NCBI GenBank assembly: GCA_964616925.1
Contig: CAZTTD010000002.1
Coordinates: forward strand, 810 to 64,809
Length of the DNA: 64,000 nucleotides
Direction of reading: 5' to 3'
Source of the DNA: an uncultured Actinomyces sp.
GTDB taxonomy: Bacteria > Actinomycetota > Actinomycetes > Actinomycetales > Actinomycetaceae
Position numbers and translations under genes: made by a program. This document shows, one piece after another, positions 4,701-61,950 of this stretch (positions are counted from its first letter, which is position 1; every line of letters begins with the position of its first letter). The notes beneath the pieces were generated by a model. The model ran no database searches, was not told the origin of the DNA, and saw only the letters and a program-made list of their open reading frames with translations.

Positions 4701-6736
4701 CTAGGCACACCCAGGCTGTCGACGTGGATCCCCACCTGGCGGCACATCTGGCGCAATTGCCCCACGATGTCGCGCCACTCCCGGTAGCGCAGGTAGTGGA
4801 AGTACTCTTTGCGGCACATGCGACGAAAGGCGCTTCCCGACAGGTCGCGGGCTTGGACGTTTAGGTAGCGCCACATGTTCAGGTAGGTGATGAAGTCGGA
4901 GGACGGGTCAGCAAACCGGCGGTGGGCCTGATCGGCTTGCTCCTGGAAGTCCACGGGGCGCTCCCGCGGATCCTGAATGGAAAGCGCAGCGACGATTACC
5001 AGAACCTCAGAGGCGCAGCCGTTGTTCGAAGCCTCAATCAACATGCGCCCAAGGCGGGGGTCTATGGGCAACTGCGCCAGCCGGCGACCCAGCGCGGTTA
5101 TGGCACCTGCCGGGCTTAAGGCCCCGATCTCCACCAGAAGCTGCACCCCATCGCGAACCGCCCGCGGATTCGGTGGGTCGAGGAACGGGAAGTCCTTCAC
5201 CTCACCCAAGCCCAGGGACGCCATCTGCAGGATGACCGCGGCCAGGGAGGTGCGCAGGATCTCGGGTTCCGTGAACTCATCGCGAGCGTTGAAGTCCCGC
5301 TCCGAGTAAAGGCGGATTGCTATGCCGTCACTGGTACGCCCCGCGCGACCCGAGCGCTGCGCAGCTGAGGCCCGCGACACCGGCTCAATGGGGAGCCGCT
5401 GCACCTTGGTCTTATTGGAGAACCTACTGATGCGCGCCAGCCCCGCGTCGATTACGTACCGGATTCCGGGAACCGTGAGGGACGTTTCCGCGATGTTTGT
5501 GGACAGGATGATGCGCTGCAGTGAGTGGGGAGCGTAGATGCGGTGCTGTTCCGCAGCACTTAACCGCGCGAAGAGCGGCACTATCTCCACCCCGTTTGGG
5601 CCGTGCGGGTCGCGGGGGTCACGGACATAACGGCTGCCCAAATGCTCTTTGAGTGCGGCGGTGGCGTCAAGGATGTCGCGCTCACCAGGCAGGAAGACCA
5701 AGATGTCCCCGCGGTCCTCCGTCAACAGTTCATCAACCGCGTGGAGGAGACCGGTTTCAAGGTCTAAGTCCTCCCCCAAGCCATAGCCGAGGGTCTCAAA
5801 AGTATCGAGCGCATCAGCCTGAGCCGCTTCCCCTGCCCCCCGGGCACTGCCTGCCGGACCGGTCTCCGTAGGCGCCACATCTGCCGAAAGTGGGCGATAC
5901 CGGATTTCCACAGGGTAGGCACGTCCCGAAACTTCTATCACTGGGACCGGCTTGCCACTGTGCTTCTCAAAGTGTTCCGCAAAGCGCTGGGAATCGATGG
6001 TGGCGGAGGTGATTATCACCTTCAGATCCGGCCGTTTTGGCAGCAGCCGGCTCAGGTATCCCAGAATGAAGTCAATGTTTAGGCTGCGTTCGTGTGCCTC
6101 ATCCACGATGATTGTGTCGTAGCGCGAAAGGAGCGGGTCAACGCTCATTTCAGCCAGCAGGATGCCGTCGGTCATCAACTTAACAAGAGTGGTCGGCCCC
6201 ACCTCATCCGTGAAGCGGACCTGGTAGCCGATGATGTCACCCACTTCTTTGCTGACCTTCTGGCCCAACTCATCCGCAATCCGCTCCGCAACCGCGCGCG
6301 CCGCCAGACGCCGCGGCTGGGTGTGTCCGATCATCGCGGAGATCCCACGCCCCAACTCCAGACAAATCTTGGGCAACTGGGTCGTCTTCCCCGACCCCGT
6401 CTCTCCCGCGACAATTACGACCTGGTTTTCCCGGATGGCGGCGGCAATGTCCCCTCTGCGAGCACTCACCGGCAAATCCGGATACGTCATGACCGGCAAC
6501 GCTGCGGCCCGCGCTGCTAGTTGGGATGGGCTGAACGTGTAGTCCCGCGGGGTTTCGGGGCGAGGGCGACGAGGCCTGCGGGAGCGCCGGGTTTGGCGTG
6601 ACTGCCCGCTTTGGCGAGGCTGCCCGGTCTGGCGTGACCGTCCGGCTTGGCCTGATCCCGTTTGGCGGGCCGCCTCCCCGCGCCCTTCGTCGGACCCCTT
6701 CCGCCCTCGCCCCGCCCCGGAGGACGGCCTGCTCAT
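1748..6736 (-). CDS. hrpA: ATP-dependent RNA helicase HrpA (DEAH-box), expanded by low-complexity inserts
   Basis: Motifs GETGSGKTTQLP, DEAHERS, SATID, TNIAETSLTVPGIRYVID and QRSGRAGR, followed by a long HrpA-type C-terminal region. The maximal ORF reaches 6793, but the ATG at 6734-6736 overlaps the upstream gene's stop (ATGA), so I prefer that start. Confidence 0.9.
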   Translation of the reverse strand: MSRPSSGAGRGRKGSDEGRGEAARQTGSGQAGRSRQTGQPRQSGQSRQTRRSRRPRRPRPETPRDYTFSPSQLAARAAALPVMTYPDLPVSARRGDIAAAIRENQVVIVAGETGSGKTTQLPKICLELGRGISAMIGHTQPRRLAARAVAERIADELGQKVSKEVGDIIGYQVRFTDEVGPTTLVKLMTDGILLAEMSVDPLLSRYDTIIVDEAHERSLNIDFILGYLSRLLPKRPDLKVIITSATIDSQRFAEHFEKHSGKPVPVIEVSGRAYPVEIRYRPLSADVAPTETGPAGSARGAGEAAQADALDTFETLGYGLGEDLDLETGLLHAVDELLTEDRGDILVFLPGERDILDATAALKEHLGSRYVRDPRDPHGPNGVEIVPLFARLSAAEQHRIYAPHSLQRIILSTNIAETSLTVPGIRYVIDAGLARISRFSNKTKVQRLPIEPVSRASAAQRSGRAGRTSDGIAIRLYSERDFNARDEFTEPEILRTSLAAVILQMASLGLGEVKDFPFLDPPNPRAVRDGVQLLVEIGALSPAGAITALGRRLAQLPIDPRLGRMLIEASNNGCASEVLVIVAALSIQDPRERPVDFQEQADQAHRRFADPSSDFITYLNMWRYLNVQARDLSGSAFRRMCRKEYFHYLRYREWRDIVGQLRQMCRQVGIHVDSLGVPSRSFIDAHREEQNPVISAVLDYGRSAKAVDAQEIHRSILSGLLSNVGSWDEPKKEYAGTRGSRFTIWPGSTLKRRRPDWVMAAELVETSRLFARTVAGVKPEWIEKYAQNLVKKSYSEPTWSRAKGSAVVNERVMLYGLTLVADRQVPLASLKETILGKDWSRSGLGSVAGATAQMENQLSSQLVDELDTARRTGLNTQLGANLTASALAREMFITHALVEGAWRDNHLAFMKRNRDVMAEAERLSERMRDPALVPDEAVRYRFFDARVPAYITSAASFGKWWKGKVTEAPHLLDYHLEDLLPAASLADPSAFPQTWEQGDLKLAVSYAFDPGANEDGVSITIPLSSLGRVQDTGFDWLVPGLLEDLCVAMIRGLPKAKRRFLAPATQTGKEIAATLERERLVDEPAGHSGTGRDSGTDGQGGRGEGAVVDGGAVGGGKTDGGGSGSGADGDTSNPYSLEASLARLQSWGAQSGSMRMSSNRPASTTPAASARSSSTPAPSAGPPRSTPVPPAGPPPSTTPPSPPKDSPRAASRKRIRARTFDEEFARAVRGRTGIDLAPSDLAAAHASLPAHLKMGFRVVDDNGAILGADDSLIRLQKRFRGQSTRALQSSVKEALEAARAKGAAGPAGGRGAGPAGGRDAGLADGPPGGPGTGTARSGAGGTAGGVSARTTPPELGAGLVTSKLDQLPQEGLPQVVEATDARGLRVRGYPALVTQKVAPNATVSVQILPTRDEANAKFADGLAALLLADLALETGRITSRWSGNQALLLAGSPYPDTPSLVADAQVAALRQLLRRKDVTPHTVRDQESYVQLRDSLRDLFEDEVYQVLTRVTTEVQAYARLEEALANHPQDTYKRVTRAARNHAKSIFQDGYLGRNSLLIAPHVSRYLLADARRVERGARGAKELSRDLANEKTIREVEAALAEAQARLEARPYSAAHALELEGIMSAAEELRVSLFAQDLGTSGRVSAPRLLRRLETLESA

Positions 6737-14336: not shown

Positions 14337-15032
14337 GTGAAAACAATCAGCTACAACCTGCGTAAAAACCGTGCAATCACTGAGATAGGTGAGCTGGCTG
14401 CAAATCACGGCGCCGACATTCTGTGCCTGCAAGAAGCAGATCCTGGGGCCCTCCCGGAGCGTCTTGGCGCAATGAGCCTTGTCCATGCCACGGAAAAGAA
14501 CCGTCTAGGTCTGGCAATGTACGTTCGCGATGAACGACTGAAGGTCCGCTCTGCGCACACGTTCCAGCTCAAGAAGTCGCTGCACGACCGCGTTTTGGCG
14601 CCCGCTCATGAGCGTCTGCTTGGGGCGCGCTTGCATGACCGCGCTACCGGCCTTGACCTAGTTGCCGCCTCATTTCACGCGGCCCCACTGACCGCACGCA
14701 ACAAACTGCGTCGGCACCAGATTGACACGGCGCTCTTTGAGTTGAACAAGATCGGCCCAGGCCTGCCCCTGCTGATGGTGGGCGACTACAACTACCCGGT
14801 GTTCAAGGACAAGCTGGACCGCCATGTGCGCGATGCTGGTTACGATCTAACGATCAGCGACCGGCGCACATACAACCGTTACAAGGTGTTCCGCGGTCAC
14901 TATGACTTCGCTACGTCCGCGGGTCTGCGCGTGGATAGCGTTCAGACGCTAGATCGTGGGTCCAGCGACCACCTGCCGATCTTGGTGCAAACCGCAATGG
15001 AGCACAAAGAAGAACTGGTCGCGGTCGCGTAA
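14337..15032 (+). CDS. endonuclease/exonuclease/phosphatase (EEP) family protein
   Basis: ISYNLR, DILCLQEAD and SSDHLPI motifs. GTG start. Confidence 0.8.
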   Translation: MKTISYNLRKNRAITEIGELAANHGADILCLQEADPGALPERLGAMSLVHATEKNRLGLAMYVRDERLKVRSAHTFQLKKSLHDRVLAPAHERLLGARLHDRATGLDLVAASFHAAPLTARNKLRRHQIDTALFELNKIGPGLPLLMVGDYNYPVFKDKLDRHVRDAGYDLTISDRRTYNRYKVFRGHYDFATSAGLRVDSVQTLDRGSSDHLPILVQTAMEHKEELVAVA

Positions 15033-15219
15033 GTTCGTCAAGGACGTCGCAAATACGCGGGCGAGGGCGATCGGCGAGCGCGCGGGCGCGCTGATCGGGT
15101 ATCGCGGGCGCGCTGACCGGGTGCCACGGGCGCGCTGACCGGATGTCTGTTGCACTGTTTGAGTGATGCCCCCTTTTTTCATGGCGGATGCTGGCACAGA
15201 CGGCAGATAGGAAAAACCC

Positions 15220-15329
15220 CTCGAAACTACATAGCGGGGCCAAAACTACATAGCGGGCAAAAATCACAGCGTTTTTATTGCTATTTTGCGTCCCCGTATG
15301 TAGTTTCGGCCCCGCTATGTAGTTTCGAG
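15220..15329. repeat. 110-bp near-perfect long hairpin (38-nt arms)
   Basis: The left arm is CTCGAAACTACATAGCGGGGCCAAAACTACATAGCGGG (15220-15257). The right arm is CCCGTATGTAGTTTCGGCCCCGCTATGTAGTTTCGAG (15293-15329). Each arm contains AAACTACATAGCGGG twice, and the loop is AT-rich. Confidence 0.85.
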
Positions 15330-15372
15330 AGAGGTTAGGCTCGTCTCGGCCCGTTTCAAGGTCTTCTTTGGC

Positions 15373-16170
15373 GGCTCTTTATAAAAGGGGCTGTGGGCAG
15401 GTTAGTTGGTGGCGGGTTAGTGGCTTTGTTGGTGCCTTGGCAGCCCTGTGCCTTTGGCTCCCAAGCGTCAGATATCGCCAAGTTGGCTCCAGATGGGCCG
15501 AGATGGCATGGCACGGATCAAGTTGGCTCTAGATGGGCCGAGATGGCATGGCACGGATCAAGTTGGCTCTGGATGGTCCGAGATGGCATGGCCATCTTGG
15601 GGGTTCGCGTGCCATCTTGACTATTTCTGTGCTTGACCGCGTGCTGCAGGCTGCGCGTGAGGCTTGGGTGGGCAGGTTGAACACAGGTTGTGTCAGTTGA
15701 ACACACGATGTGTTGATCGGACGCACGTTGTGTGCGTGCACAAGGTGCGTTGGACTAACACGCCTAATCGTTGTGCCCAAAATGCAACGATGTGCCCGTC
15801 GGTGAACGTTGTGCCCGAAAACAGGCCGTTCAGCTAACTGTGCCCAAAGTGCAACGATGTGCCCGTTGGTGAACGTTGTGCCCGGGAACATCGTTAGTTT
15901 CGTGCCACATCGTTAGCTCCACGACGTTCGCTGGCGATTTGTGAACGTTGTGCCCGAAAAGGGGCCGTTCAGCTAATCGTTGTGCCCAAAATGCAACGTT
16001 GTGCCCAAAAACAGGCCGTTCAGCTAATCGTTGTGCCCAAAATGCAACGTTGTGCCCAAAAACAGGCCGTCCAGCTAACTGTGCCCGCCGTCGAACGCTG
16101 TGTCACGAACCAACCAACCAGGCCCAAGAGGGACCGACTGACCCTTCTACAGCCTCTTTCATGAAGAGCC
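15373..16170 (+). mobile_element. MITE-like non-autonomous element, copy 1 (about 800 bp, no ORF)
   Basis: The left TIR is GGCTCTTTATAAAAGGGGCTGTGG (15373-15396). The reverse complement of the right TIR is GGCTCTTCATGAAAGAGGCTGTAG (16147-16170); 20 of 24 positions match. The 8-bp direct repeat TCTTTGGC flanks both ends (15365-15372 and 16171-16178). The interior consists of tandem repeat arrays. Confidence 0.75.
15764..16105. repeat. tandem array of about 51-bp units carrying 12+ copies of (C)GTTGTGCCC
   Basis: GTGCCCAAAAACAGGCCGTTCAGCTAATCGTT / GTGCCCAAAATGCAACGTT alternate repeatedly. The array lies inside MITE copy 1. Confidence 0.85.
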
Positions 16171-16264
16171 TCTTTGGCCATGGTGGCGGGCCAAATTGGT
16201 CCCTGCACGGCTCAGATCGTCGGTATCGTCTTGGATCGGCCCCTATAGCTATGCGACAGCGGGG

Positions 16265-16470
16265 GCGCGAACGAAACCGAGCATAAGGGCGGCAGTGAGT
16301 GCGCGAACGAAACCGAGCACAAGGGCGACCGCGAGCGTGCGAACGAAACCGAGCACAAGGGCGACCGCGAGTGCGCGAACGAAACCGAGCACAAAGGGCG
16401 ACAGCGAGCGTGCGAACGAAACCGAGCACAAAAACGCCCCGGCACGGAACGAAACCGGACCGGGGCGCCC
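16265..16470. repeat. 36-bp tandem repeat G(C/T)GCGAACGAAACCGAGCACAAGGGCGACCGCGAG(C/T) x about 5.5
   Basis: Units start at 16265, 16301, 16337, 16373 and 16410. The last partial unit merges into the pntB terminator. Confidence 0.9.
16430..16467 (-). terminator. intrinsic terminator of pntB
   Basis: On the minus strand the sequence reads CGCCCCGG-loop-CCGGGGCG followed by TTTTT (stem 16460-16467 / 16435-16442, T-run 16430-16434). It lies 13 nt after the pntB stop. Confidence 0.75.
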
Positions 16471-16479
16471 TCGTACTAA

Positions 16480-17967
16480 TTACGCGTTCTGCTTCACCGC
16501 CGACAGAATGTTGTCCACAGACGCCTTCGCGTCGCCGAACAGCATGTGCGTGTTCTCCTTGAAGAACAATGGGTTCTGCACGCCCGCGTAGCCAGTGGCC
16601 ATGGAGCGTTTGAAAACGATGACGTTCTTCGATTCCCACACCTTCAGAACCGGCATGCCGGCAATGGGGGAGCCCGGCTCTTCCGCGGCTGGGTTCACCG
16701 TGTCGTTGGCCCCGATGACTAGGACGGTATCAACGTCCGCGAAATCATCGTTGACCTCATCCATTTCTTTCACGATGTCGTAGGGAACCTTCGCCTCAGC
16801 CAACAGGACGTTCATGTGTCCAGGTAGGCGACCTGCGACCGGGTGCACGCCAAACTCCACGTCAACACCCATTTCGCGCAGCGCGGTCGTTAGCTCCGCG
16901 ACCGGGTACTGCGCCTGCGCAACCGCCATGCCGTAACCCGGGGTGATCATCACCTTGCGTGAACCGGCCAGCATCGCGGCAACTTGCTCGGCGTTGATTT
17001 CTTGGTGCTCCCCGTCCTCGTCCCCAGAAGCCTCCGTGGACTCTCCAGTTCCAAACCCACCCAGGATCACGGAAATAAAGGAGCGGTTCATGGCGCGGCA
17101 CATGATGTAGGACAGGAACGCACCGGATGAACCGACCAGCGCGCCGGTGATGATCAGCAGGTCGTTATTCAGCATGAAACCGGCGGCCGCAGCAGCCCAG
17201 CCGGAGTAGGAGTTCAGCATCGACACGACCACCGGCATGTCGCCGCCACCGATCGCAGCAACCAGGTGGACGCCCAGTGCGAGGGCGATGATCGTCATCA
17301 AGATGAACGGAACCCACGCGCCCCAGCCGTGGCCAACCGCGATGAACCAGCCCATCAGGACAATGGAGACGATGATGGCGCCCAGGTTCAGCCAGTTACG
17401 GCCAGGCAGCATCAGTGGCGCGCCGGAGATCTTCCCCGACAGTTTCAGGTAGGCAACCACGGAGCCGGTGAGTGTGACAGCGCCGATGAAGACGCCAAGG
17501 AAAACCTCTCCAAGGTGGAAGCCGCCCAGCGCAATCGCTTCGGCGTCCGGGGCCAGGAAAGAGTTGTAGCCAACCAGGACGGCCGCAAGGCCCACGAAGC
17601 TGTGCAGCAACGCGATCAGCTCCGGCATCCCGGTCATCTCAACCTTTGCGGCTTTCCACAGGCCAATGCCCGCGCCAATCAGCATGGCAACAGCGATCAG
17701 CAGCGCGGTTGTGAGTACACCGCGTCCCGGCCCGGATGACAGTGCCGCCAAGATGGTGGCCGCAAGCGCGATCCCCATCCCGATGATTCCCATGTTGTTT
17801 CCGTGGCGCGACGTCTCATGGGAGGAGAGACCACGCAGAGAAAGGATGAACAGGATGGCGGCCACAATGTACGCCAAGGTGACGACGTGGCCGGTCCAGT
17901 AGGAGGGGCTGGAGAACGTGTCGGCTGCCAGTGCGGGAAGAACAGTATTCATGATCAGTGCATTCAT
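16480..17967 (-). CDS. pntB: NAD(P) transhydrogenase subunit beta
   Basis: 495-aa ORF with an N-terminal polytopic domain and a C-terminal dIII NADP(H) domain ([37 protein letters not shown]). Confidence 0.95.
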
Positions 17968-19520: not shown

Positions 19521-19652
19521 GTAAAATCCTTCAATTTTGTTAGGAGATGACCCAAGCCAACTATAGGCAACATGCGCCACACCTGCTGTCAAGATCCTCG
19601 GTGTTGTGCGACTCTCTTTCCCTTTTGCAGCGCCGGCGGGCTACGCTGTAAG

Positions 19653-19753
19653 TAGCCACGGGGCCCCTGATGCGGGGGTGAGAGGGGAACAGCAGTTCCC
19701 GACCGTCGAACCTGATCCGGTTAGTACCGGCGTAGGAAGGCATTCCGCGGCTA
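19653..19753 (+). promoter_or_regulatory. TPP (THI-box) riboswitch
   Basis: GGGGUGAGAGG ... ACCGUCGAACCUGAUCCGGUUAGUACCGGCGUAGGAAGG matches the conserved THI-box core. P1 is UAGCCACGG / CCGCGGCUA. It sits directly upstream of a ykoE-type S-component. Confidence 0.9.
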
Positions 19754-19789
19754 TGAAAAGTGGGTTTCAGTTAGTCCGTGGAGGAGAAC

Positions 19790-33874: not shown

Positions 33875-33957
33875 GCCTGCGGTGGTGCGTTTGCCGTGGC
33901 GAGTTTGCCGGTATTCCGGTCGCCAGCAGACTTGGCCTCTTGCGTGGTTTGTGGGAT

Positions 33958-34026
33958 CTCAAATGTTAGATCGCCGTTGTCGCTTAGCTATAGCGACGAT
34001 CTATCACGGTAACGACGATCTAAGGT
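33958..34026. repeat. palindromic repeat family B, copy 1
   Basis: CTCAAATGTTAGATCGCCGTTGTCGCTTAGCTATAGCGACGATCT...AACGACGATCTAAGG, with inverted AGATCGCCGTT / AACGGCGATCT-type arms. Related copies lie at 38951 and 55441. Confidence 0.8.
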
Positions 34027-34554
34027 GCACGGGATCGCTTCGGAGCCGCGAACATCCTGGCGGAGGCCCCGCAGCGGAGCGTTGACTACGAAATCCCAAG
34101 ACATTCAGAGTCGCGGGGAGCGAAGGGTTGGCGCCATCCGAAACATTCTCTGCCGGCTCACAGCTTTTCAGCGGATGATCGGAGTGATGGTCCAACCTTG
34201 CGTGCCCGGCGCGCAAACTGTGATGGCTGCCCGTATACGGGGGTCCACGATGACGAAGTCGTGGGCTGGAGGTGCGCTGCCGTGGAGAAAATCCCGAACG
34301 TGAGAGCGCTGGTGTAGGGCCGCCGACCCGCCGGGCACCAGGCCGAAGTTTCAAAGCCGAACGTACCGACTACCCTCCTTCAAGTCACACACAATCTCCA
34401 CAACTGATCCGTGGTCCAGTCGGGCTCCTTCGTCAGTCTCTGGAACTCTCCGCCTACCAGGCGTCGCCACGCATGCCAAATTCTGAGGACTGATTAACTA
34501 CACTAAGTTCATGTTATTAAACCGATAACCCGCTTCAAAGATGGGAGGAAGTCA

Positions 34555-34722
34555 GTGAAATCGCGAAAGAAGCACATGGCACTGTCGCTGGCAACGTCGT
34601 CACTCGTCAATTACGGCGGCGTGGGAACGACAGTTAACAGGAGCGTTGGCTCCGTTTCTATGATCAGGGCGTGTTATTCGCGTCCGGCTTTGCTGATGTC
34701 TTGCGGGTCTTGGAGTGGCTGA
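34555..34722 (+). CDS. candidate 55-aa small ORF (below the ORF-track cutoff)
   Basis: GGGAGGA lies 6 nt before the GTG at 34555. It translates to MKSRKKHMALSLATSSLVNYGGVGTTVNRSVGSVSMIRACYSRPALLMSCGSWSG. The stop is 3 nt before the start of the next gene. GC3 is about 65%. Confidence 0.3.
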   Translation: MKSRKKHMALSLATSSLVNYGGVGTTVNRSVGSVSMIRACYSRPALLMSCGSWSG

Positions 34723-34725
34723 CAG

Positions 34726-36462
34726 GTGAGTGGGACCCGCGTGTTGTTTTCCCGCAGTGCGCGGGTATCTGGCTGGGTTGTTGTTTTGTTGGGTGCGGCC
34801 CTTACTGTTCTGAGTGTGGTGTCCTTGGCGGTGACCCACGCTGCTTATGAGGTTCGGTCTGAGCGGACGAACGCGAGGGCGCTCTTGGAGGCACTCGATG
34901 GGGATGCTAACTACTTGTTCCGGTATTCTGTCGCTTCATTTGAAGGTCGTTCCCTTGCGGTTACCTATATTGAGCCCCTGACGGAGAATGCGGAACCTCC
35001 TCCTGGGTTGAAGGGTTGGATGACTCCAGGGGAGGTAGCTGCTTCTCCCGCTGTTGTTGACTCCACGGAGATCTGGGAGCGTTTTGGGCCCATTACCCAG
35101 GTTATTGGTGAAGAAGGTTTGGGTTCACCAACGGAGCGCCTCATTTACGTGCGTCCCCTGAGCAGCGCCAATGACACCGGGATGCTGCCAGCAGAGAGTT
35201 TCGGCCAGTTCTTTTCTTTGGAGCTGGCAAGTGAGGATATTCGGGCCCAACCAGAAGGAATGATGCTGGGGTTGCAGGCTGCATTCTTAGTGGTTCCAGC
35301 CGCTGTCCTCTTGGCGGTGGGGATCTCTTTGAGCACTCCAAGTATTCGCAGGCGCACTGTGATGCTGGAGGTCCTGGGGGCAGACCCAGTGCAAGCTTGG
35401 CGTCTTTCCACCGCAAGGTTAGCTGCGGCGCTCAGTATCGGAGCTCTGCTCGCGGGGGTAGTATCCGCCCTCGTTTCCAGCATTGGCCTGCGAATAGGAG
35501 ATTTTCAGATTTCTGGGGCGACCCTGACCTCGCATTGGCAGCAGATGCTGGGGTTCTGGGGATTGGGTTGCCTTCTGATCTTTGCGCTGGCGGCCGCGCA
35601 AACGGTTCCGTGGGGTGCGCAAGAAAAGCAGCGGGTCCAGGTCAAACAGAAACGCTATTCCGCTTTGATCGCGTTTTCTGCTTTCATTCTTATCTTGGGC
35701 CTGGGCTGGCTGATGCTCAGTATTGCCAGGATTGGGCAGCCACGCTGGATATACCTCCTGTTCCTCGGGGCAGTGGTTGTCGCTGCCGGTTCCACCACCA
35801 TGGTGGGCTGGGCCCTTCAACGCATCTCCCAGTTCATTTTGGGTTTGGGTAAGCGAACCAGTAACGCGGTCCTCCTCATCACAGGAGCTGAGGGTACCCA
35901 TGGAAGAGGTCGTGGCGCATTCGCGGGCGCAGCCGTAGTGATCTCTATCTTTATTAGTGTCCAGGTAGCGACCTACGCAATGATGCTGGGATCATCCAAC
36001 ACAGAGGCTCTTGAGTATCAGGCAAAGTTCGCGGACAAGGTGGTTGCCGTTGAGTTAGGTAACGCTCCCGAAACCACCCCACAGGCCGTGGAGGCGTTCC
36101 TTGACGATCTACCCAGCGGCACACAAAACACCATGGTGACGCAATCTTTGTCGGGATCTGACACGAACTTGGTGGTGGAGTGGAGGCAGTGGATGCTCCC
36201 GGGAAGCCAGGTCAGTGCAAACTCGATGACGCTGATGCGGGAAGCACTGTTCGGAGCCTTCGGCACCCTTCCGGAGGAGGCAGCACAGCGTGAAACCGCC
36301 CTCGACACCGAACTCCGCGACTCAGTTGCGAACCTACTGTTTAACACTGTGGCTGAACAGGGGGCGGCCCTGATCATTGCCACCCACGACCCTGCGCTTT
36401 CTGCCTCCGCTGATGCAACGTACGTTCTGTCCGAGGGCGAAGCCGGCGGCTACACACCCTAA
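34726..36462 (+). CDS. FtsX-like ABC permease fused to a C-terminal remnant of an ABC ATPase (possibly degenerate)
   Basis: TM1, a large loop and an FtsX-type TM bundle are followed by more TMs. The last 55 aa (ETALDTELRDSVANLLFNTVAEQGAALIIATHDPALSASADATYVLSEGE) match only the post-Walker-B tail of MacB/LolD-type ATPases. No Walker A or LSGGQ is present. Confidence 0.65.
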   Translation: MSGTRVLFSRSARVSGWVVVLLGAALTVLSVVSLAVTHAAYEVRSERTNARALLEALDGDANYLFRYSVASFEGRSLAVTYIEPLTENAEPPPGLKGWMTPGEVAASPAVVDSTEIWERFGPITQVIGEEGLGSPTERLIYVRPLSSANDTGMLPAESFGQFFSLELASEDIRAQPEGMMLGLQAAFLVVPAAVLLAVGISLSTPSIRRRTVMLEVLGADPVQAWRLSTARLAAALSIGALLAGVVSALVSSIGLRIGDFQISGATLTSHWQQMLGFWGLGCLLIFALAAAQTVPWGAQEKQRVQVKQKRYSALIAFSAFILILGLGWLMLSIARIGQPRWIYLLFLGAVVVAAGSTTMVGWALQRISQFILGLGKRTSNAVLLITGAEGTHGRGRGAFAGAAVVISIFISVQVATYAMMLGSSNTEALEYQAKFADKVVAVELGNAPETTPQAVEAFLDDLPSGTQNTMVTQSLSGSDTNLVVEWRQWMLPGSQVSANSMTLMREALFGAFGTLPEEAAQRETALDTELRDSVANLLFNTVAEQGAALIIATHDPALSASADATYVLSEGEAGGYTP

Positions 36463-36644
36463 AACAAACAAGCCAACGTCACTGGACTCAAGTGGGGCCG
36501 AACTCCGGCTTTAACCACGGAATTCACCTTGACACAACACGATGTCATTGACGCGCCACGAGGGCACTGCAAGCCTATTCTGCGTTATCCCGAATCCCAA
36601 AGGGACGTCAAGGTGGTCCAAGTCCTAGCTCAAATCGCCCTCGC

Positions 36645-38009
36645 TCAGATCTTGCGGTCCCAATCGGGGATAGCGCCGGGGGAGCCGGGAGCCACGCGGA
36701 TAAGCAACGCGCCCGCATCCACGCGTGCATGGATTGTCCGGGCGGTCCCGATGGGATCACCGTCGACCTGCACCGGGTAGGGCTTGGATATGTCCGCACG
36801 TGCGTCGGAGGCTTGGCGGAACTGGATTTGCGCAATGTCGTGCTTCGTATTGACGGGCTGAATACCGGCCTGGTTGACGAAAATCTTGGCGGACAGATAC
36901 GCCCACCCCAGAAGCCCACCCTTCGTGTCGATCGCTATGACGTCCAGTTTTCCATCGTCTACGAGGGCGTCCGGTGCCAGCTGCGCGAAAGGCAAGTCCC
37001 CGCAGTTGGCGAAGAGGATGGTGCGGGCCCGCACAGCTGTCATATCCCAGCTCTTGTGGGAGCGGATCGGCGGGTTCACTCCGTCAGGGGAACCCAGGGT
37101 GTGTGATGCCTCTACTGCTTCTTGGACAGCTCGGGGGATCGGGAGGCTGCCAGGTAGTTTCCTGCGCTGGAGCTTTCCCGGAGCATTGTCGTTGGGCTCC
37201 TTGAAGACGGTCACGGTGGCTTTCATGCGCTCGATCCGCAGTGAGGACAATGCCGTGAATACGTATGCGCTCCAGCCGACTCTCTTTTTGAGAGTCGGTG
37301 TTGTTTGAGCCATGGTTTCGCCGTCAAAACCGACGCCTGCGATGACCATGTAGGAGTACTCATTTTCCCTGGGTTCCCGCACCCCGTCTGGGTAGGTTCG
37401 CACGTCCGTAGCCCGGGCTTGGAGAAGCAACGCGCCCTCCGCTGGATACTCCGACGGAACGTCAACCCGTTCGGCCCGCAACCAGGCTATGTCTACGCGG
37501 CGACTAACGGGGTTCAATGCGATCTGGATCGCTAACTCAGGGTCCAGAGGAATGTTCAGATTTCGCGCTAGGAGGTTGCCGGTTCCCATTGGGAGAAGTC
37601 CCATGGGGGTGCGCGAATGGGCCATCGCTGCCGCAACCGCCCGAACCGTGCCATCTCCACCAGCGGCGATTACCAACGACGCGTTGTTGCGGAGCGCCTC
37701 GATGGCCTGTCCCGTGCCGGGGTCGGCAACAGTCGTTTCCAACCATCGGGGAGGGCGCCCGGTAGCCCGCTCAACCTCCCCGTCAATGAGAGCCTTGAAC
37801 TTTTCATAGTTGGAAGGCTTGATCGGATTTACGATCACCCAGATATCACGAACTAAAAGTCCGTCTGACCCGTGCGCTTCATGCGGTGCCACGTACGGAA
37901 TCCGTGTTGAGCGTCGCTTGGCGGTGTACACCATTGCGACCGCCACAATGGCGACGAGGACGATGATCGACAAGGAAACGATTGCCAAAATCAAGGAAGT
38001 GTCAGCCAT
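36645..38009 (-). CDS. diacylglycerol/lipid kinase (DAGK catalytic domain, YegS/LCB5-like) with N-terminal TM anchor
   Basis: VIVNP..., AAGGDGTVRAV and LPMGTGNLLARNL motifs. Confidence 0.85.
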   Translation of the reverse strand: MADTSLILAIVSLSIIVLVAIVAVAMVYTAKRRSTRIPYVAPHEAHGSDGLLVRDIWVIVNPIKPSNYEKFKALIDGEVERATGRPPRWLETTVADPGTGQAIEALRNNASLVIAAGGDGTVRAVAAAMAHSRTPMGLLPMGTGNLLARNLNIPLDPELAIQIALNPVSRRVDIAWLRAERVDVPSEYPAEGALLLQARATDVRTYPDGVREPRENEYSYMVIAGVGFDGETMAQTTPTLKKRVGWSAYVFTALSSLRIERMKATVTVFKEPNDNAPGKLQRRKLPGSLPIPRAVQEAVEASHTLGSPDGVNPPIRSHKSWDMTAVRARTILFANCGDLPFAQLAPDALVDDGKLDVIAIDTKGGLLGWAYLSAKIFVNQAGIQPVNTKHDIAQIQFRQASDARADISKPYPVQVDGDPIGTARTIHARVDAGALLIRVAPGSPGAIPDWDRKI

Positions 38010-38950: not shown

Positions 38951-39013
38951 GAAACGTTGGATCGCCGCTATAGCTATGCAACAACGGCGATCTAAAGCGA
39001 CAACGGCGATCTT
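38951..39013. repeat. palindromic repeat family B, copy 2
   Basis: GAAACGTTGGATCGCCGCTATAGCTATGCAACAACGGCGATCTAAAGCGACAACGGCGATCT. Confidence 0.75.
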
Positions 39014-39202
39014 TTGTGTGCGGAGACCCAGTTGGGGCTAAGTCCAAGCTAAGAGCTGACTCGCAAGGGCCCGCCGGGGCCCACAGAACCCTGCAAAGCC
39101 TGATTGGCAACCGGATCAGAGCCGCCCGCCGGTGTTGGGTTGCAGCAAACAGGAAAACGGACAGCAACCAGGGAAACAATCACTGTTTTGAAACAACAAA
39201 CA

Positions 39203-39814
39203 GTCGCTTCACAAAAGGGGCTGTGGGGACCACATAGTTCACGGCTGGCTAATGCCGCAGCGCCTGCGGCGCGCGACTAGCTGGTGGGATGGCCTTGGAA
39301 GTCTTCTTGGGGTGCATATGTCAACGCCGAGTTGGTGCGGCACGGATCAAGTTGGTTCTGGATGGGTCGAGATGGCTCTGTGCGGATCAAGTTGGCTCTA
39401 GATGGGCCAGGATGGCATAGCCATCTTGGGGGTTCGCATGCCATCTTGACTACCTCTGTGGTTGGCATCCGTTTCTTGAGGGCAGATATCGCCAAGTTGG
39501 TTCTGGATGGTTCGAGATGGCTCTGTGCGGATCAAGTTGGCTCTAGATGGGCCAGGATGGCATAGCCATCTTGGGGGTTGGCATGCCATCTTGACTACCT
39601 CTGTGGTTGGCATCCGTTTCTTGAAGGCAGATATCGCCAAGTTGGTTCTGGATGGGTCGAGATGGCTCAGCCATCTCGGGGGTCCGCATGCCATCTTGAC
39701 CATTTCTGTGATTGACCGTGTGCTGCATGCGGTGGGATAGGCACAGATCACCCCCAACTCAAGCAGGCACCGGGCCAACTGGTTTCATCTACAGCCCTTT
39801 ATTATCAAGTGCTC
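39203..39814 (+). mobile_element. MITE-like element, copy 2 (about 610 bp)
   Basis: The left end is GTCGCTTCACAAAAGGGGCTGTGG. The reverse complement of the right end is GAGCACTTGATAATAAAGGGCTGTAG. The interior has three rounds of the module ...GATCAAGTTGGCTCTAGATGGGCC.GGATGGCATAGCCATCTTGGGGGTT.GCATGCCATCTTGAC.... I see no clean TSD. Confidence 0.6.
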
Positions 39815-39840
39815 TTTTTTGAAGCGCGGTTAGGCCTCGC

Positions 39841-40000
39841 GGAGCCGGATGGAGCTGCATGGAGACGCATGGGGCCGTATGGAGCTGCATGGAGCCGGAT
39901 GGAGCTGCATGGAGCCGGATGGAGCTGCATGGAGCCGGATGGAGCTGCATGGAGCTGCATGGAGACGCGCGGAGACGCATGGGGCTGCATGAAGCCGCGG
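39841..40000. repeat. 16 consecutive 10-bp units (GGAGCTGCAT / GGAGCCGGAT and variants)
   Basis: Read directly: every decamer from 39841 to 40000 fits GGRGMNGNRY-like GGAGC(T/C)G(C/G)AT. The array ends 75 bp upstream of the serS ATG. Confidence 0.9.
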
Positions 40001-44051: not shown

Positions 44052-44128
44052 CGTTGCAATGACGCGGGAAACTCTTTTGGCAGCTTCTGCTCGTCCTCGC
44101 CGTAAGCGCCCCCAAAGTAGCCATAACC

Positions 44129-44437
44129 GGCGCTTCTGTAAGGGGTTGTAGATGAAACCAGTTGGGCCGGTGCCTGCTTAAGTTGGACGCGAGCTGCGCC
44201 TTATACGCAGCCTGTAGCACACGGTCAACCACAGAAGTAGTCAAGATGGCATGCCAACCCCCAAGATGGCTACGCCATCTTGGCCCCTCTAGAGCCAACT
44301 TGGCGTTGACATCCGCGCCCCAAGAAGACTTCCAGGGCCATCCCACTAGTTGGCCGGGCGCCACTGGCGATGAGGCATTAGCCAGCCGTGAATTATCGTG
44401 AATCATGTGGTCCGCACAGCCCCTTTTGTGAAGCGCC
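44129..44437 (-). mobile_element. MITE-like element, copy 3 (about 309 bp, inverted relative to copies 1 and 2)
   Basis: The termini are GGCGCTTCTGTAAGGGGTTGTAG... and ...CACAGCCCCTTTTGTGAAGCGCC, with a perfect 8-bp terminal IR GGCGCTTC. The element is flanked by the direct repeat CCATAACC (44121-44128 and 44438-44445). It contains one GATGGC(G/A)TAGCCATCTTGGGGGTTGGCATGCCATCTTGAC module. Confidence 0.8.
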
Positions 44438-44575
44438 CCATAACCGTCCAAGAATCGCCAGTTTTTGCGTGGGTTTAGGACAGCAGTAGGAGCCCTGTAG
44501 GCGCCTGGTAGGCAGCCGGGCAGACACTAGGCAGACTCCGGTCGGTATCTGCCTAGTTAGATGGTTTTGACTGAG

Positions 44576-44656
44576 ACTATCGAAGGACGTGGCTAACTAT
44601 CGAAGGTTGTTCCCGGGCACAAGTATCGATAATCGACCACAACCTTCGATAGTTTG
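44576..44656. repeat. inverted-repeat element family C, copy 1
   Basis: CTATCGAAGGACGTGGCTAACTATCGAAGGTTGTTCCCGGGCACAAGTATCGATAATCGACCACAACCTTCGATAGTTT, with arms AAACTATCGAAGGTTGT / ACAACCTTCGATAGTTT. A homologous copy lies at 55930. Confidence 0.8.
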
Positions 44657-55180: not shown

Positions 55181-55440
55181 GGCTTGCGCCAGCTGTAATG
55201 CGGCACCACTTGCACCGCAAAAGTCGGGCGTCCTCGCTGTTTTTGGCGAGGGCGCCCGCCAGCACTTTAAACGGTGCTTCTGAAGTGGCTTTTCTGAGCT
55301 GGCTCTTCTGAGATGGTTCTCCTGTCGCAGCTCTTCTGTCATGGAATGGGCTCTAGTGGGTGAATCTGGTGTGCGTCAGTGATCTGTCTAGGGCTGTCGC
55401 AGGTGCCAGTGGATGTCCTTTCCACCCCCTGTAGCGAGGC

Positions 55441-55526
55441 CTCAAATGTTAGATCGCCGTTATCGCTTAAGATCGCCGTTCTTGCATAGCCATAGCGACG
55501 ATCCAGGACGATAACGGCGATCTAAG
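55441..55526. repeat. palindromic repeat family B, copy 3
   Basis: CTCAAATGTTAGATCGCCGTTATCGCTTAAGATCGCCGTTCTTGCATAGCCATAGCGACGATCCAGGACGATAACGGCGATCTAAG. Confidence 0.8.
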
Positions 55527-60851: not shown

Positions 60852-61868
60852 CTAGTACATAAATGTCCAGCTGGTGAAAGGGCGTTTCAGCTGCGGGAAG
60901 ACATCTAAGAACTCCCGCGCGGTTCTGGGCGCGGGCTCCCCCAGCGAAGCTGAGATCATACTCACGACATCACCTGTGGTAACGCCAAGTTCGCGGAGCT
61001 GCTTCAACGTGACCGCGCCGTCCCTCTTGGCAAGGCGGGAGCCCGTGGGTCCCAATACAAGCGGAACATGTCCATACGTGGGCTCCGAACAGCCCAGTTG
61101 AGCCGTCAAATAAGAGTGGACGGGCGCGGACGCCAACAGGTCATCTCCGCGGACGATCTGGTCCACACCCATGGCTACGTCGTCCACCACCACAGCCAGG
61201 TTGTACGCGTGTTCCCCGTCCCCTCTTTTTAGGACAACGGAGTCGACCGGTCCCGTGTATGGCCCGGAATACATGTCTTCTACGGTCCACTGGGGGATCG
61301 AGGGCGCAAGTCGCAACGCGGGCTTCAACCCGCGTGAGGCCATCTCTTCCCTCCTCCGCCCTCGTTCCGCATCACTCAAGTGCGCGCACGTCCCCGGGTA
61401 ACGGCCCGGCGGGGAATGGGCGGCGGAAGCGGCCTCCCGAATGTCCTTGCGGGAGCAGTAACACTCAAATACCAGCCCCTTGTGACGGAGTTCATCCAGG
61501 GCGGCGTCGTAGAGTTCCAGACGCTCACTCTGGGTGACGATTTCACCGTCCCAGTCGATTCCGATTTCTTCGAGGTCGCTGATCTGCCCCGAAGGGTCCC
61601 TTGCGCGGCCCCGGTCTAAGTCTTCAAGGCGTAGGTAGAAGTCGCGGCCGGTTGAGCGGGCCGCTGCCCACGCCAAAAGGGCCGTGCGCAGGTTGCCGAC
61701 GTGGAGATCCCCGGTGGGGGAGGGTGCGTATCGTCCGGCACCCATGAGGGCCTCCAATTCTTCGTTTCGAGGGCGTCGTGCGTCACGAAACCCCAGCTTG
61801 TCCACACTACGGACGCCCGGTTTTGGCGTGTAGGCATCTACTACATCTATTATCATCGGAGAAACCAT
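60852..61868 (-). CDS. gluQ: tRNA glutamyl-Q(34) synthetase
   Basis: GRYAPSPTGDLHVGNLRTALLAW (HIGH-type), RLEDLD and LAKRDG (KMSKS-like). No anticodon-binding domain. Confidence 0.88.
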   Translation of the reverse strand: MVSPMIIDVVDAYTPKPGVRSVDKLGFRDARRPRNEELEALMGAGRYAPSPTGDLHVGNLRTALLAWAAARSTGRDFYLRLEDLDRGRARDPSGQISDLEEIGIDWDGEIVTQSERLELYDAALDELRHKGLVFECYCSRKDIREAASAAHSPPGRYPGTCAHLSDAERGRRREEMASRGLKPALRLAPSIPQWTVEDMYSGPYTGPVDSVVLKRGDGEHAYNLAVVVDDVAMGVDQIVRGDDLLASAPVHSYLTAQLGCSEPTYGHVPLVLGPTGSRLAKRDGAVTLKQLRELGVTTGDVVSMISASLGEPAPRTAREFLDVFPQLKRPFTSWTFMY

Positions 61869-61950
61869 CTAGAGCAGCTGAGAGACCTGGCTCCGTGAAG
61901 CTGCAGCAACCAGCAAACGCAAGGTGCTACGGCCAGGACCGATGGAGGAA
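61865..61950 (+). promoter_or_regulatory. candidate SAM riboswitch (SAM-I clan, short SAM-IV or SAM-I/IV-like form) upstream of metNIQ
   Basis: GAGAGACCUGGCUCCGUGAAGCUGCAGCAACC-AGCAAACGCAA-GGUGCUACGGCCAGG aligns with the SAM-I core GAGGGACUGGCCCGAUGAAACCCGGCAACC-loop-GGUGCCAAUUCC. Possible P1: CCAUC (61865-9) with GAUGG (61941-5), overlapping the GGAGGA SD of metN. Confidence 0.45.

Follow-up and report, generated by a model that had tools for sequence, protein, structure and literature searches.

The 3′-3′ spacer between an Exo_endo_phos gene (14337–15032, + strand) and pntB (16480–17967, − strand) extends over 1447 bp in the window, i.e., the whole 64-kb stretch of DNA analyzed here, and contains an element of 798 bp, el1 (15373–16170). 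An earlier note on this DNA had read el1 as MITE-like. This raises the question of whether el1 is a mobile element at all, which enzyme might have moved it, and what its repeat-filled interior stands for. We conclude that el1 is very probably a non-autonomous transposable element mobilized by an ISL3 transposase, i.e., a large MITE. The MITE-like reading was strengthened by copies at other loci, by the absence of coding capacity and by ends that match those of ISL3 insertion sequences (IS).

The ends of el1 were read in the sequence between window positions 15000 and 16600 (Table 1). They are 24-bp terminal inverted repeats (TIRs), the left one, GGCTCTTTATAAAAGGGGCTGTGG, being identical at 20 of 24 positions to the reverse complement of the right one, GGCTCTTCATGAAAGAGGCTGTAG, and a perfect octamer stands at both junctions; coordinates and strings are those that the earlier note had given. 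The bases flanking the TIRs, C at 15372 and T at 16171, are not complementary. The inverted repeat hence cannot be extended outward, which fixes the duplication at exactly 8 bp, directly adjoining the two ends. The octamers do not belong to a larger repeat, as seen both in the sequence read and by BLAST.

Table 1. Features of el1 and of its two further copies in the 64-kb window.
Feature	Position	Strand	Remarks
Left target-site duplication copy, TCTTTGGC	15365–15372		Identical to 16171–16178; abuts left terminus
Left terminal inverted repeat, GGCTCTTTATAAAAGGGGCTGTGG	15373–15396	+	22/24 vs ISL3 IS terminus of L045
40-bp tandem module (CAAGTTGGCTCTAGATGGGCCGAGATGGCATGGCACGGAT), 2.8 copies	15479–15592	+	Tandem repeat analysis; copy number varies between family members
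Family core GAGATGGCATGGCCATCTTGGGGGTTCGCGTGCCATCTTGAC with GATGGC..GCCATC palindrome	15580–15621	+	Common to the three window copies, L009, L050 and L054
Short palindromic motif run, ACACA-n3-TGTGT and GCACG-n7-CGTGC	15676–15770	+	
Array of 12 direct AACGWTGTGCCC motifs	15767–16086	+	Spacings of 19, 29 and 32 bp, one of 72 bp
Right terminal inverted repeat, CTACAGCCTCTTTCATGAAGAGCC; reverse complement GGCTCTTCATGAAAGAGGCTGTAG	16147–16170	−	Sequence read
Right target-site duplication copy, TCTTTGGC	16171–16178		Sequence read
Second family member, decayed	39203–39828	+	Left terminus GTCGCTTCACAAAAGGGGCTGTGG; right terminus interrupted by ~19 bp
Third family member, 309 bp, single module	44129–44437	−	Downstream of tRNA-Ser(tga)

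Such a structure might also be due to chance, i.e., an immobile spacer rich in minisatellites that happens to be bounded by an inverted repeat. The spacer is indeed packed with unrelated repeats: besides el1, there are a repeat of 22 bp, an inverted repeat of 38 nt, one half of a further repeat family and an array with 4.9 copies of a 36-bp unit. However, a degenerate 22-nt terminus pattern, allowing up to three mismatches, matched four times in the window, compared with 0.00 matches expected from 100 dinucleotide-preserving shuffles. Moreover, perfect 8-bp duplications flank two copies in the window, at a chance probability of about 1.5e-5 for each of them, and termini of identical type are found on transposase-bearing IS copies (see below). 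The copies at other loci refute the chance reading, to which we give an almost vanishing probability.

The terminus pattern led to the second and third copies. By BLAST of el1 against the window, all three copies have the termini and the module/core region in common; the TGTGCCC half is found within the window in el1 only. The second copy lies upstream of serS, its interior is built from a 145-bp higher-order unit (2.2 copies), and no target duplication was found at its junctions. The third copy is flanked by a perfect 8-bp duplication of a different sequence, CCATAACC (44121–44128 and 44438–44445). Both are inverted with respect to each other around serS, a HAD hydrolase gene, an N-acylglucosamine-epimerase-like gene and tRNA-Ser(tga). 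We considered and rejected a composite transposon formed by this pair, as its outer flanks (AACAAACA vs CCATAACC) do not match, the third copy has a duplication of its own, and a relative without the elements has the enclosed housekeeping genes in synteny. The family is thus dispersed: the 64 kb hold three copies, two of which are flanked by perfect 8-bp duplications, and other assemblies have copies at four or more further loci.

These further loci came from public assemblies. When the terminus pattern was run against a single genome for each GTDB species, five loci were obtained, three of which (L006–L008) were chance matches in low-G+C DNA, as were most low-G+C metagenome matches to the pattern. 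Another of the five, L009, is a 987-bp element on a 2-kb MAG contig that aligns with el1 end to end and has an end identical to the right TIR of el1. It differs from el1 in module number, in the number of TGTGCCC units and by an insertion of about 260 bp, and it is flanked by a decayed duplication, TTTAAGGG and TTTAACGC, with six of eight positions identical. We suspect that the Lachnospiraceae label of this contig is a binning error.

Two more copies, L050 and L054, were recovered by a protein-database search with a spurious 120-aa ORF of el1. L054 comes from another sample and sits at the insertion site of L009. L050 is a separate locus, and its left end keeps IS-like sequence past the TIR, where BLAST still finds identity up to about position 32 of the IS. 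The metagenome scan also gave L027, a 275-bp MITE with GGCGCTT-type ends at yet another locus; a partial copy of it adjoins an IS in L038. In its interior, L027 has no more than a distant similarity to the third window copy, but it keeps a CCAYCTYG pair about 20 bp apart and a distant counterpart of the family core (given as GAGATGGCATGGCCATCTTGGGGGTTCGCGTGCCATCTTGAC or GCCATCTTGGGGGTTSGCRTGCCATCTTGAC). In a plasmid collection, blastn with el1 found no match. The earlier note had proposed counting further copies; there are two in the window and, elsewhere, L009/L054, L050, L027 and L038.

Family lengths range from about 0.3 to 1.0 kb (309–987 bp; 275 bp for L027). MITEs are usually shorter than about 500 bp, a limit within which the third window copy and L027 fall, whereas el1 and L009 exceed it, which for el1 speaks against a typical MITE. 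The excess length of both consists of internal tandem repeats.

According to the ISfinder consensus, ISL3 elements have TIRs of about 15–39 bp with a GGCTCTT start, and an 8-bp duplication is the rule of the family. Both termini of el1, GGCTCTTTATAAAAGGGGCTGTGG and GGCTCTTCATGAAAGAGGCTGTAG, conform to this, and so do the 8-bp target-site duplications of el1 (TCTTTGGC) and of the third copy (CCATAACC). The classical actinobacterial ISL3 member is IS31831. It prefers A/T-rich targets (PMC1590026). GGCTCTT-type ISL3 termini and the 8-bp duplication rule are further supported by work on Microcystis (PMC11448079).

Transposase-encoding elements with matching ends were reached via L005, a non-autonomous element of Scrofimicrobium canadense (4815–5491, NZ_VULO01000013) that, with 677 bp, is similar to el1 in size. 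Its termini, GGCTCTTCTTAAAAGGGGCTGTAA and GGCTCTTCATGAAAGGGGCTGTAG, are similar to those of el1, the right one at 23 of 24 positions. Pfam gave no ISL3 match for the transposase fragment of L005 alone; the link was made through homologues of this fragment, which led to L012; the other full-length copies came from the metagenome scan. Altogether we analyzed full-length IS copies of 1410–1415 bp from metagenomes (L012, L034, L045 and L038, also L037). Their 24-bp termini, GGCTCTTCATAAAAGGGGCTGTAG, agree with each end of el1 at 22 of 24 positions and are identical at both ends in L045. These IS copies carry a single ORF for a 438-aa ISL3 transposase. The L012 transposase matched PF01610 (DDE_Tnp_ISL3, E = 5.9e-56) and PF13542 (HTH_Tnp_ISL3), as well as NCBIfam NF033550, 'ISL3 family transposase', with 328 bits (cutoff 180). 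Among annotated ISL3 transposases on plasmids, the nearest come from actinobacteria and are about 50% identical to the 438-aa protein. The transposase ORF ends with HLQPLL* inside the right IS terminus (CTACAGCCCCTT), and the MITE ends retain this string; the CTACAGCC string in the MITE ends is hence explained by the ORF terminating within the right terminus. The full-length copies examined here have no clean 8-bp duplications themselves, a point against the ISL3 reading; two lie inside other IS copies.

The earlier note had named GGCTCTT-type ends with an 8-bp duplication as typical of actinobacterial ISL3 elements, and the near-identical ends on IS with a PF01610/NF033550 transposase support this assignment. 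It had also stated that the window holds no transposase, and tblastn of the 64 kb with the matching transposase found no ISL3 transposase, the best E value being 1.1. Candidate autonomous partners are the full-length ISL3 IS with matching ends in other metagenomes, the source of all IS copies described here; the window contains none, and neither the genome nor the metagenome contig scan returned the window's own copies.

El1 might then be an internal-deletion remnant of a full-length ISL3 IS that decayed in place. L005, with termini of identical type, is a comparable case, i.e., its interior is a transposase remnant (residues 1–171, 72.5% identity). The interior of el1, in contrast, is unrelated to the IS. 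We compared the three window copies, L009, L050 and L027 with four full-length IS copies and L005 by short-word BLAST, and homology between MITE and IS was confined to the terminal 22–32 bp. The family hence did not arise from the IS by simple deletion. Moreover, the interior of el1 is common to other non-coding copies at different loci, it has hence transposed as a MITE after its acquisition. We regard the remnant reading as largely refuted and very improbable. A full-length ISL3 IS (L012/L034, L045, L038), with 1.41 kb and a 438-aa transposase, has only its ends in common with the non-coding el1.

El1 has no coding capacity. The earlier note had seen no plausible gene in the interior, in accordance with our finding that the interior ORFs have no Pfam match and that none is conserved. 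The longest one (120 aa) agrees with its counterpart in L009 over about 20 N-terminal residues only, after which the reading frames part; searched against a protein database, it gave four homologues, including calls made on the element copies L050 and L054. It could still be argued that the product of el1 is a small protein or a structured non-coding RNA, the inverted ends being incidental, given that its predicted fold is more stable than that of shuffled sequences (z = −8.7 for the + strand and −5.9 for the − strand). However, both strands fold stably because inverted and tandem repeats at the DNA level produce such scores. Rfam gave no family in el1 at gathering and E-value thresholds, and a promoter and terminator scan found no such site inside the element. 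Large insertions and deletions distinguish the copies, and no ORF is conserved in frame. In an alignment of el1, L009 and L050, the palindromic block at 15676–15770 is the best conserved part of the interior; it has no compensatory changes, with variation too small for a covariation test. We consider an RNA or protein product highly improbable. Rfam miRNA-type matches on a neighboring hairpin (15220–15329) were dismissed as spurious.

The interior of el1 is composed of minisatellites whose copy number differs between family copies. The earlier note had put the module period at 44 bp; tandem repeat analysis corrected this to 40 bp in 2.8 copies, in agreement with the unit quoted in the note, which has 40 nt. 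The palindrome-containing segment and the GTGCCC array that it had described are both present, the former as the family core, the latter as 12 TGTGCCC occurrences (15772–16086), all on the + strand. L009 has two 40-bp modules and L054 has three at one and the same insertion site, the interior hence behaves as a variable-number tandem repeat. The AACGWTGTGCCC array, with repeat units of 19–51 bp, is found in el1 and L009 and is absent from the second and third window copies. Pneumococcal BOX elements likewise have a modular interior, with module numbers varying between copies as in el1. To our knowledge, BOX elements are without transposase-matched, IS-type terminal repeats and without target duplications, which, compared by description, sets them apart from el1.

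The regularity of the array suggests another possibility, namely that el1 is the vehicle of a functional cargo, its arrays being putative protein-binding sites spread by the MITE. The sites would be the 12 AACGWTGTGCCC motifs in one orientation, about two helical turns apart, together with the AGATGG/CCATCT modules, and the binder could be the transposase itself, an iteron-, centromere- or titration-type binder, or a regulator. In addition to the regular spacings of 19, 29 and 32 bp, it speaks for this that the arrays are kept in L009 at another locus, that the CCAYCTYG pair recurs in the otherwise divergent L027, and that the inner IS terminus, CTGTAGATGGTGG, resembles the AGATGG module motif. 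These motif resemblances are, however, only 6–7 nt long, the arrays are absent from the second and third window copies and from L027, and no candidate binding protein is linked to el1. In a single pairwise alignment of el1 and L009, mismatches amounted to 13% at motif positions and 15% in the spacers. The motifs are thus no better conserved than their surroundings, which argues, for this one comparison, against selection on them; the array region as a whole diverges faster than the rest of el1 (6.5%). Finally, the host is full of unrelated intergenic tandem repeats, i.e., arrays of this kind arise readily. We therefore find a functional cargo improbable. If it were real, transposition would distribute sites for titration, iteron-like sites or transposase-landing sites over an actinobacterial chromosome. 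The biological interest of the family would grow only if the interior arrays proved to be protein-binding.

Returning to el1 as a MITE mobilized by an ISL3 transposase, its features can be joined in a tentative sequence of events. The element would carry nothing but TIRs of about 24 bp, to be recognized by an ISL3 DDE transposase, and a non-coding interior unrelated to the IS. Most likely, a full-length ISL3 element with matching ends provided, in trans, the transposase that bound both termini. El1 would then have been excised or copied and inserted into the Exo_endo_phos/pntB spacer, where repair of the staggered cut would have duplicated 8 bp, TCTTTGGC. The intermediate was presumably a circle, formed by copy-out-paste-in; circular intermediates, presumably arising by this route, have been described for ISL3 elements (bioRxiv 10.1101/2023.06.07.543989). 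Later, the 40-bp modules and the 19–51-bp AACGWTGTGCCC units would have expanded and contracted as minisatellites by slippage or recombination, resulting in family lengths between 0.3 and 1.0 kb. Mobilization in trans, the chemistry of transposition and neutrality of the interior are what we infer; the ends, the duplication, the copies at different loci, the matching full-length ISL3 elements, the lack of coding capacity and the repeat-number variation are what we observed.

A precedent for such mobilization is found in Microcystis aeruginosa PCC 7806, with a 187-nt ISL3-associated MITE that has GGCTCTTCG termini and 8-nt direct repeats and has been attributed to trans mobilization by an ISL3 transposase (PMC11448079). 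Compared by description, it resembles el1 in being non-coding and in having imperfect terminal repeats that start with GGCTCTTC as in the co-resident ISL3 elements. It differs from the el1 family in length (187 nt vs 309–987 bp) and in its cyanobacterial host, compared with a probably actinobacterial genome of 60% G+C; the el1 family, in turn, has a modular minisatellite interior and no partner IS in the window. As a kind of mobile DNA, el1 is hence ordinary, a routine example of trans-mobilized non-autonomous elements. The family itself is apparently an ISL3-derived MITE family, undescribed until now, in an uncultured high-G+C bacterium.

To see el1 in its genomic surroundings, we compared the locus with GCA_964344825.1, a syntenic relative of about 80–84% nucleotide identity. 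Here, only 74 bp separate the Exo_endo_phos gene from pntB, compared with 1447 bp in the window. A 100-N scaffold gap in this spacer was taken for an artifact, given that the two contig ends have some 55 bp of unique sequence in common. Likewise, the second copy lies in a spacer of about 1354 bp, whose ortholog in the relative measures 134 bp, and 33 kb of this relative were free of family members. GCA_964344825.1 shows that the el1 locus is unoccupied in a sister lineage. Lack of conservation in the immediate flanks keeps this from being resolved to the base, and what is missing from the relative is a repeat block of 1.37 kb that includes more than el1. Reconstructed empty sites (CAAGGTCTTCTTTGGCCATGGTGGCGG and CGTTTCAAGGTCTTCTTTGGCCATGGTGGCGGGCC, with a single TCTTTGGC) gave no BLAST match in the sequences gathered, an exact-protein look-up with SerS gave no match either, and L013 was rejected as an empty site, since it diverges after 44065 into a different repeat. 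Of the search for empty sites that the earlier note had proposed, the short spacer of the relative was hence obtained, a base-precise empty site was not.

The window is rich in unrelated intergenic tandem repeats. Together with such neighboring repeats, the el1 family inflates intergenic spacers about 10–20-fold compared with the sister species. Short-read assemblies of the host of el1 break in the repeat-rich spacers: contigs of its species all end at 16342, inside the 36-bp array of the el1 spacer, and same-species contigs also end at 44065–44069 and at 44627/44686. Samples that carry the species are ERR13763365, ERR13763367, ERR13763368, ERR13763414 and SRR11702771. The variable modules, for their part, could serve as strain markers.

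The spacer between the Exo_endo_phos gene and pntB, in which the 798-bp ISL3-type MITE (el1) lies, also holds two tandem arrays with units of 36 bp and 22 bp, respectively. Every short-read contig of the species ends at position 16342, inside the 36-bp array. To the left of el1, at a distance of 43 bp, lies an inverted repeat composed of four copies of the motif AAACTACATAGCGGGG, one pair in direct and one pair in inverted orientation. The only Rfam matches to this inverted repeat were spurious, of the miRNA type. A small repeat family distinct from the MITE has inverted arms GATCGCCGTTATCG...CGATAACGGCGATC around the centre CATAGC(C/T)ATAGCGAC; at least four copies or fragments are present in the window, and another one in the strain-variant metagenome contig L013.

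Features in the window and in related contigs
Feature	Location	Details
Inverted repeat	window 15220-15329	arms 38 nt, complementarity 92%, loop 34 nt
22-bp tandem array	window 15081-15142	2.8 copies
36-bp tandem array	window 16253-16431	4.9 copies; unit contains ..GCGAACGAAACCGAGCACAAGG..
10-bp tandem repeat	window 39841-39998	GGAGCCGCAT, 15.8 copies
CATAGC-centred repeat family	window 55434-55518, 38955-39015, 16210-16262, 33974-34032; L013 3944-4168
ISL3 right-end fragment with flanking repeats	L046 3271-3500; L047 2754-3050; L029 952-1200
578-aa ORF	window 34726-36462	inside 33878-36646
TPP riboswitch	window 19648-19755	Rfam score above gathering threshold
SAM (S-box) riboswitch	window 61862-61948	Rfam score above gathering threshold

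A right-end fragment of an ISL3 element, 124-134 bp long and of the same family as the el1-type ends, was found on three metagenome contigs of high G+C content (L046, L047 and L029). On these contigs, a second terminus-like sequence is followed by the right-end fragment and then by tandem repeats of about 35 bp (GGAGCCGGTCGGGCTTAGCGAGCCAG..). This arrangement may represent another non-autonomous ISL3 derivative filled with repeats. At the loci L012 (1-330) and L034, the full-length ISL3 element appears to be nested, in inverted orientation, within a second copy of the same insertion sequence. Contig L054, which carries a MITE copy, has Illumina adapter sequence at both of its ends (1-45 and 800-849) and is therefore an assembly artefact surrounding a genuine insert.

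Downstream of tRNA-Ser(tga), window positions 44066-44626 vary at the strain level. L013 (ERR13763414) agrees with the window up to 44065 and continues with a different sequence; other contigs end to the left of this stretch, at 44065-44069, or to its right, at 44627/44686. The syntenic relative GCA_964344825.1 has no counterpart of about 2.7 kb of the window (33878-36646), where an ORF encodes what, judged from its sequence, looks like a membrane protein. Also missing in this genome is the 10-bp tandem repeat upstream of serS, which in the window lies immediately 5' of the gene and separates its start from the decayed MITE family member at 39203-39828. Moreover, two riboswitches, i.e., TPP and SAM (S-box), were detected in the window.
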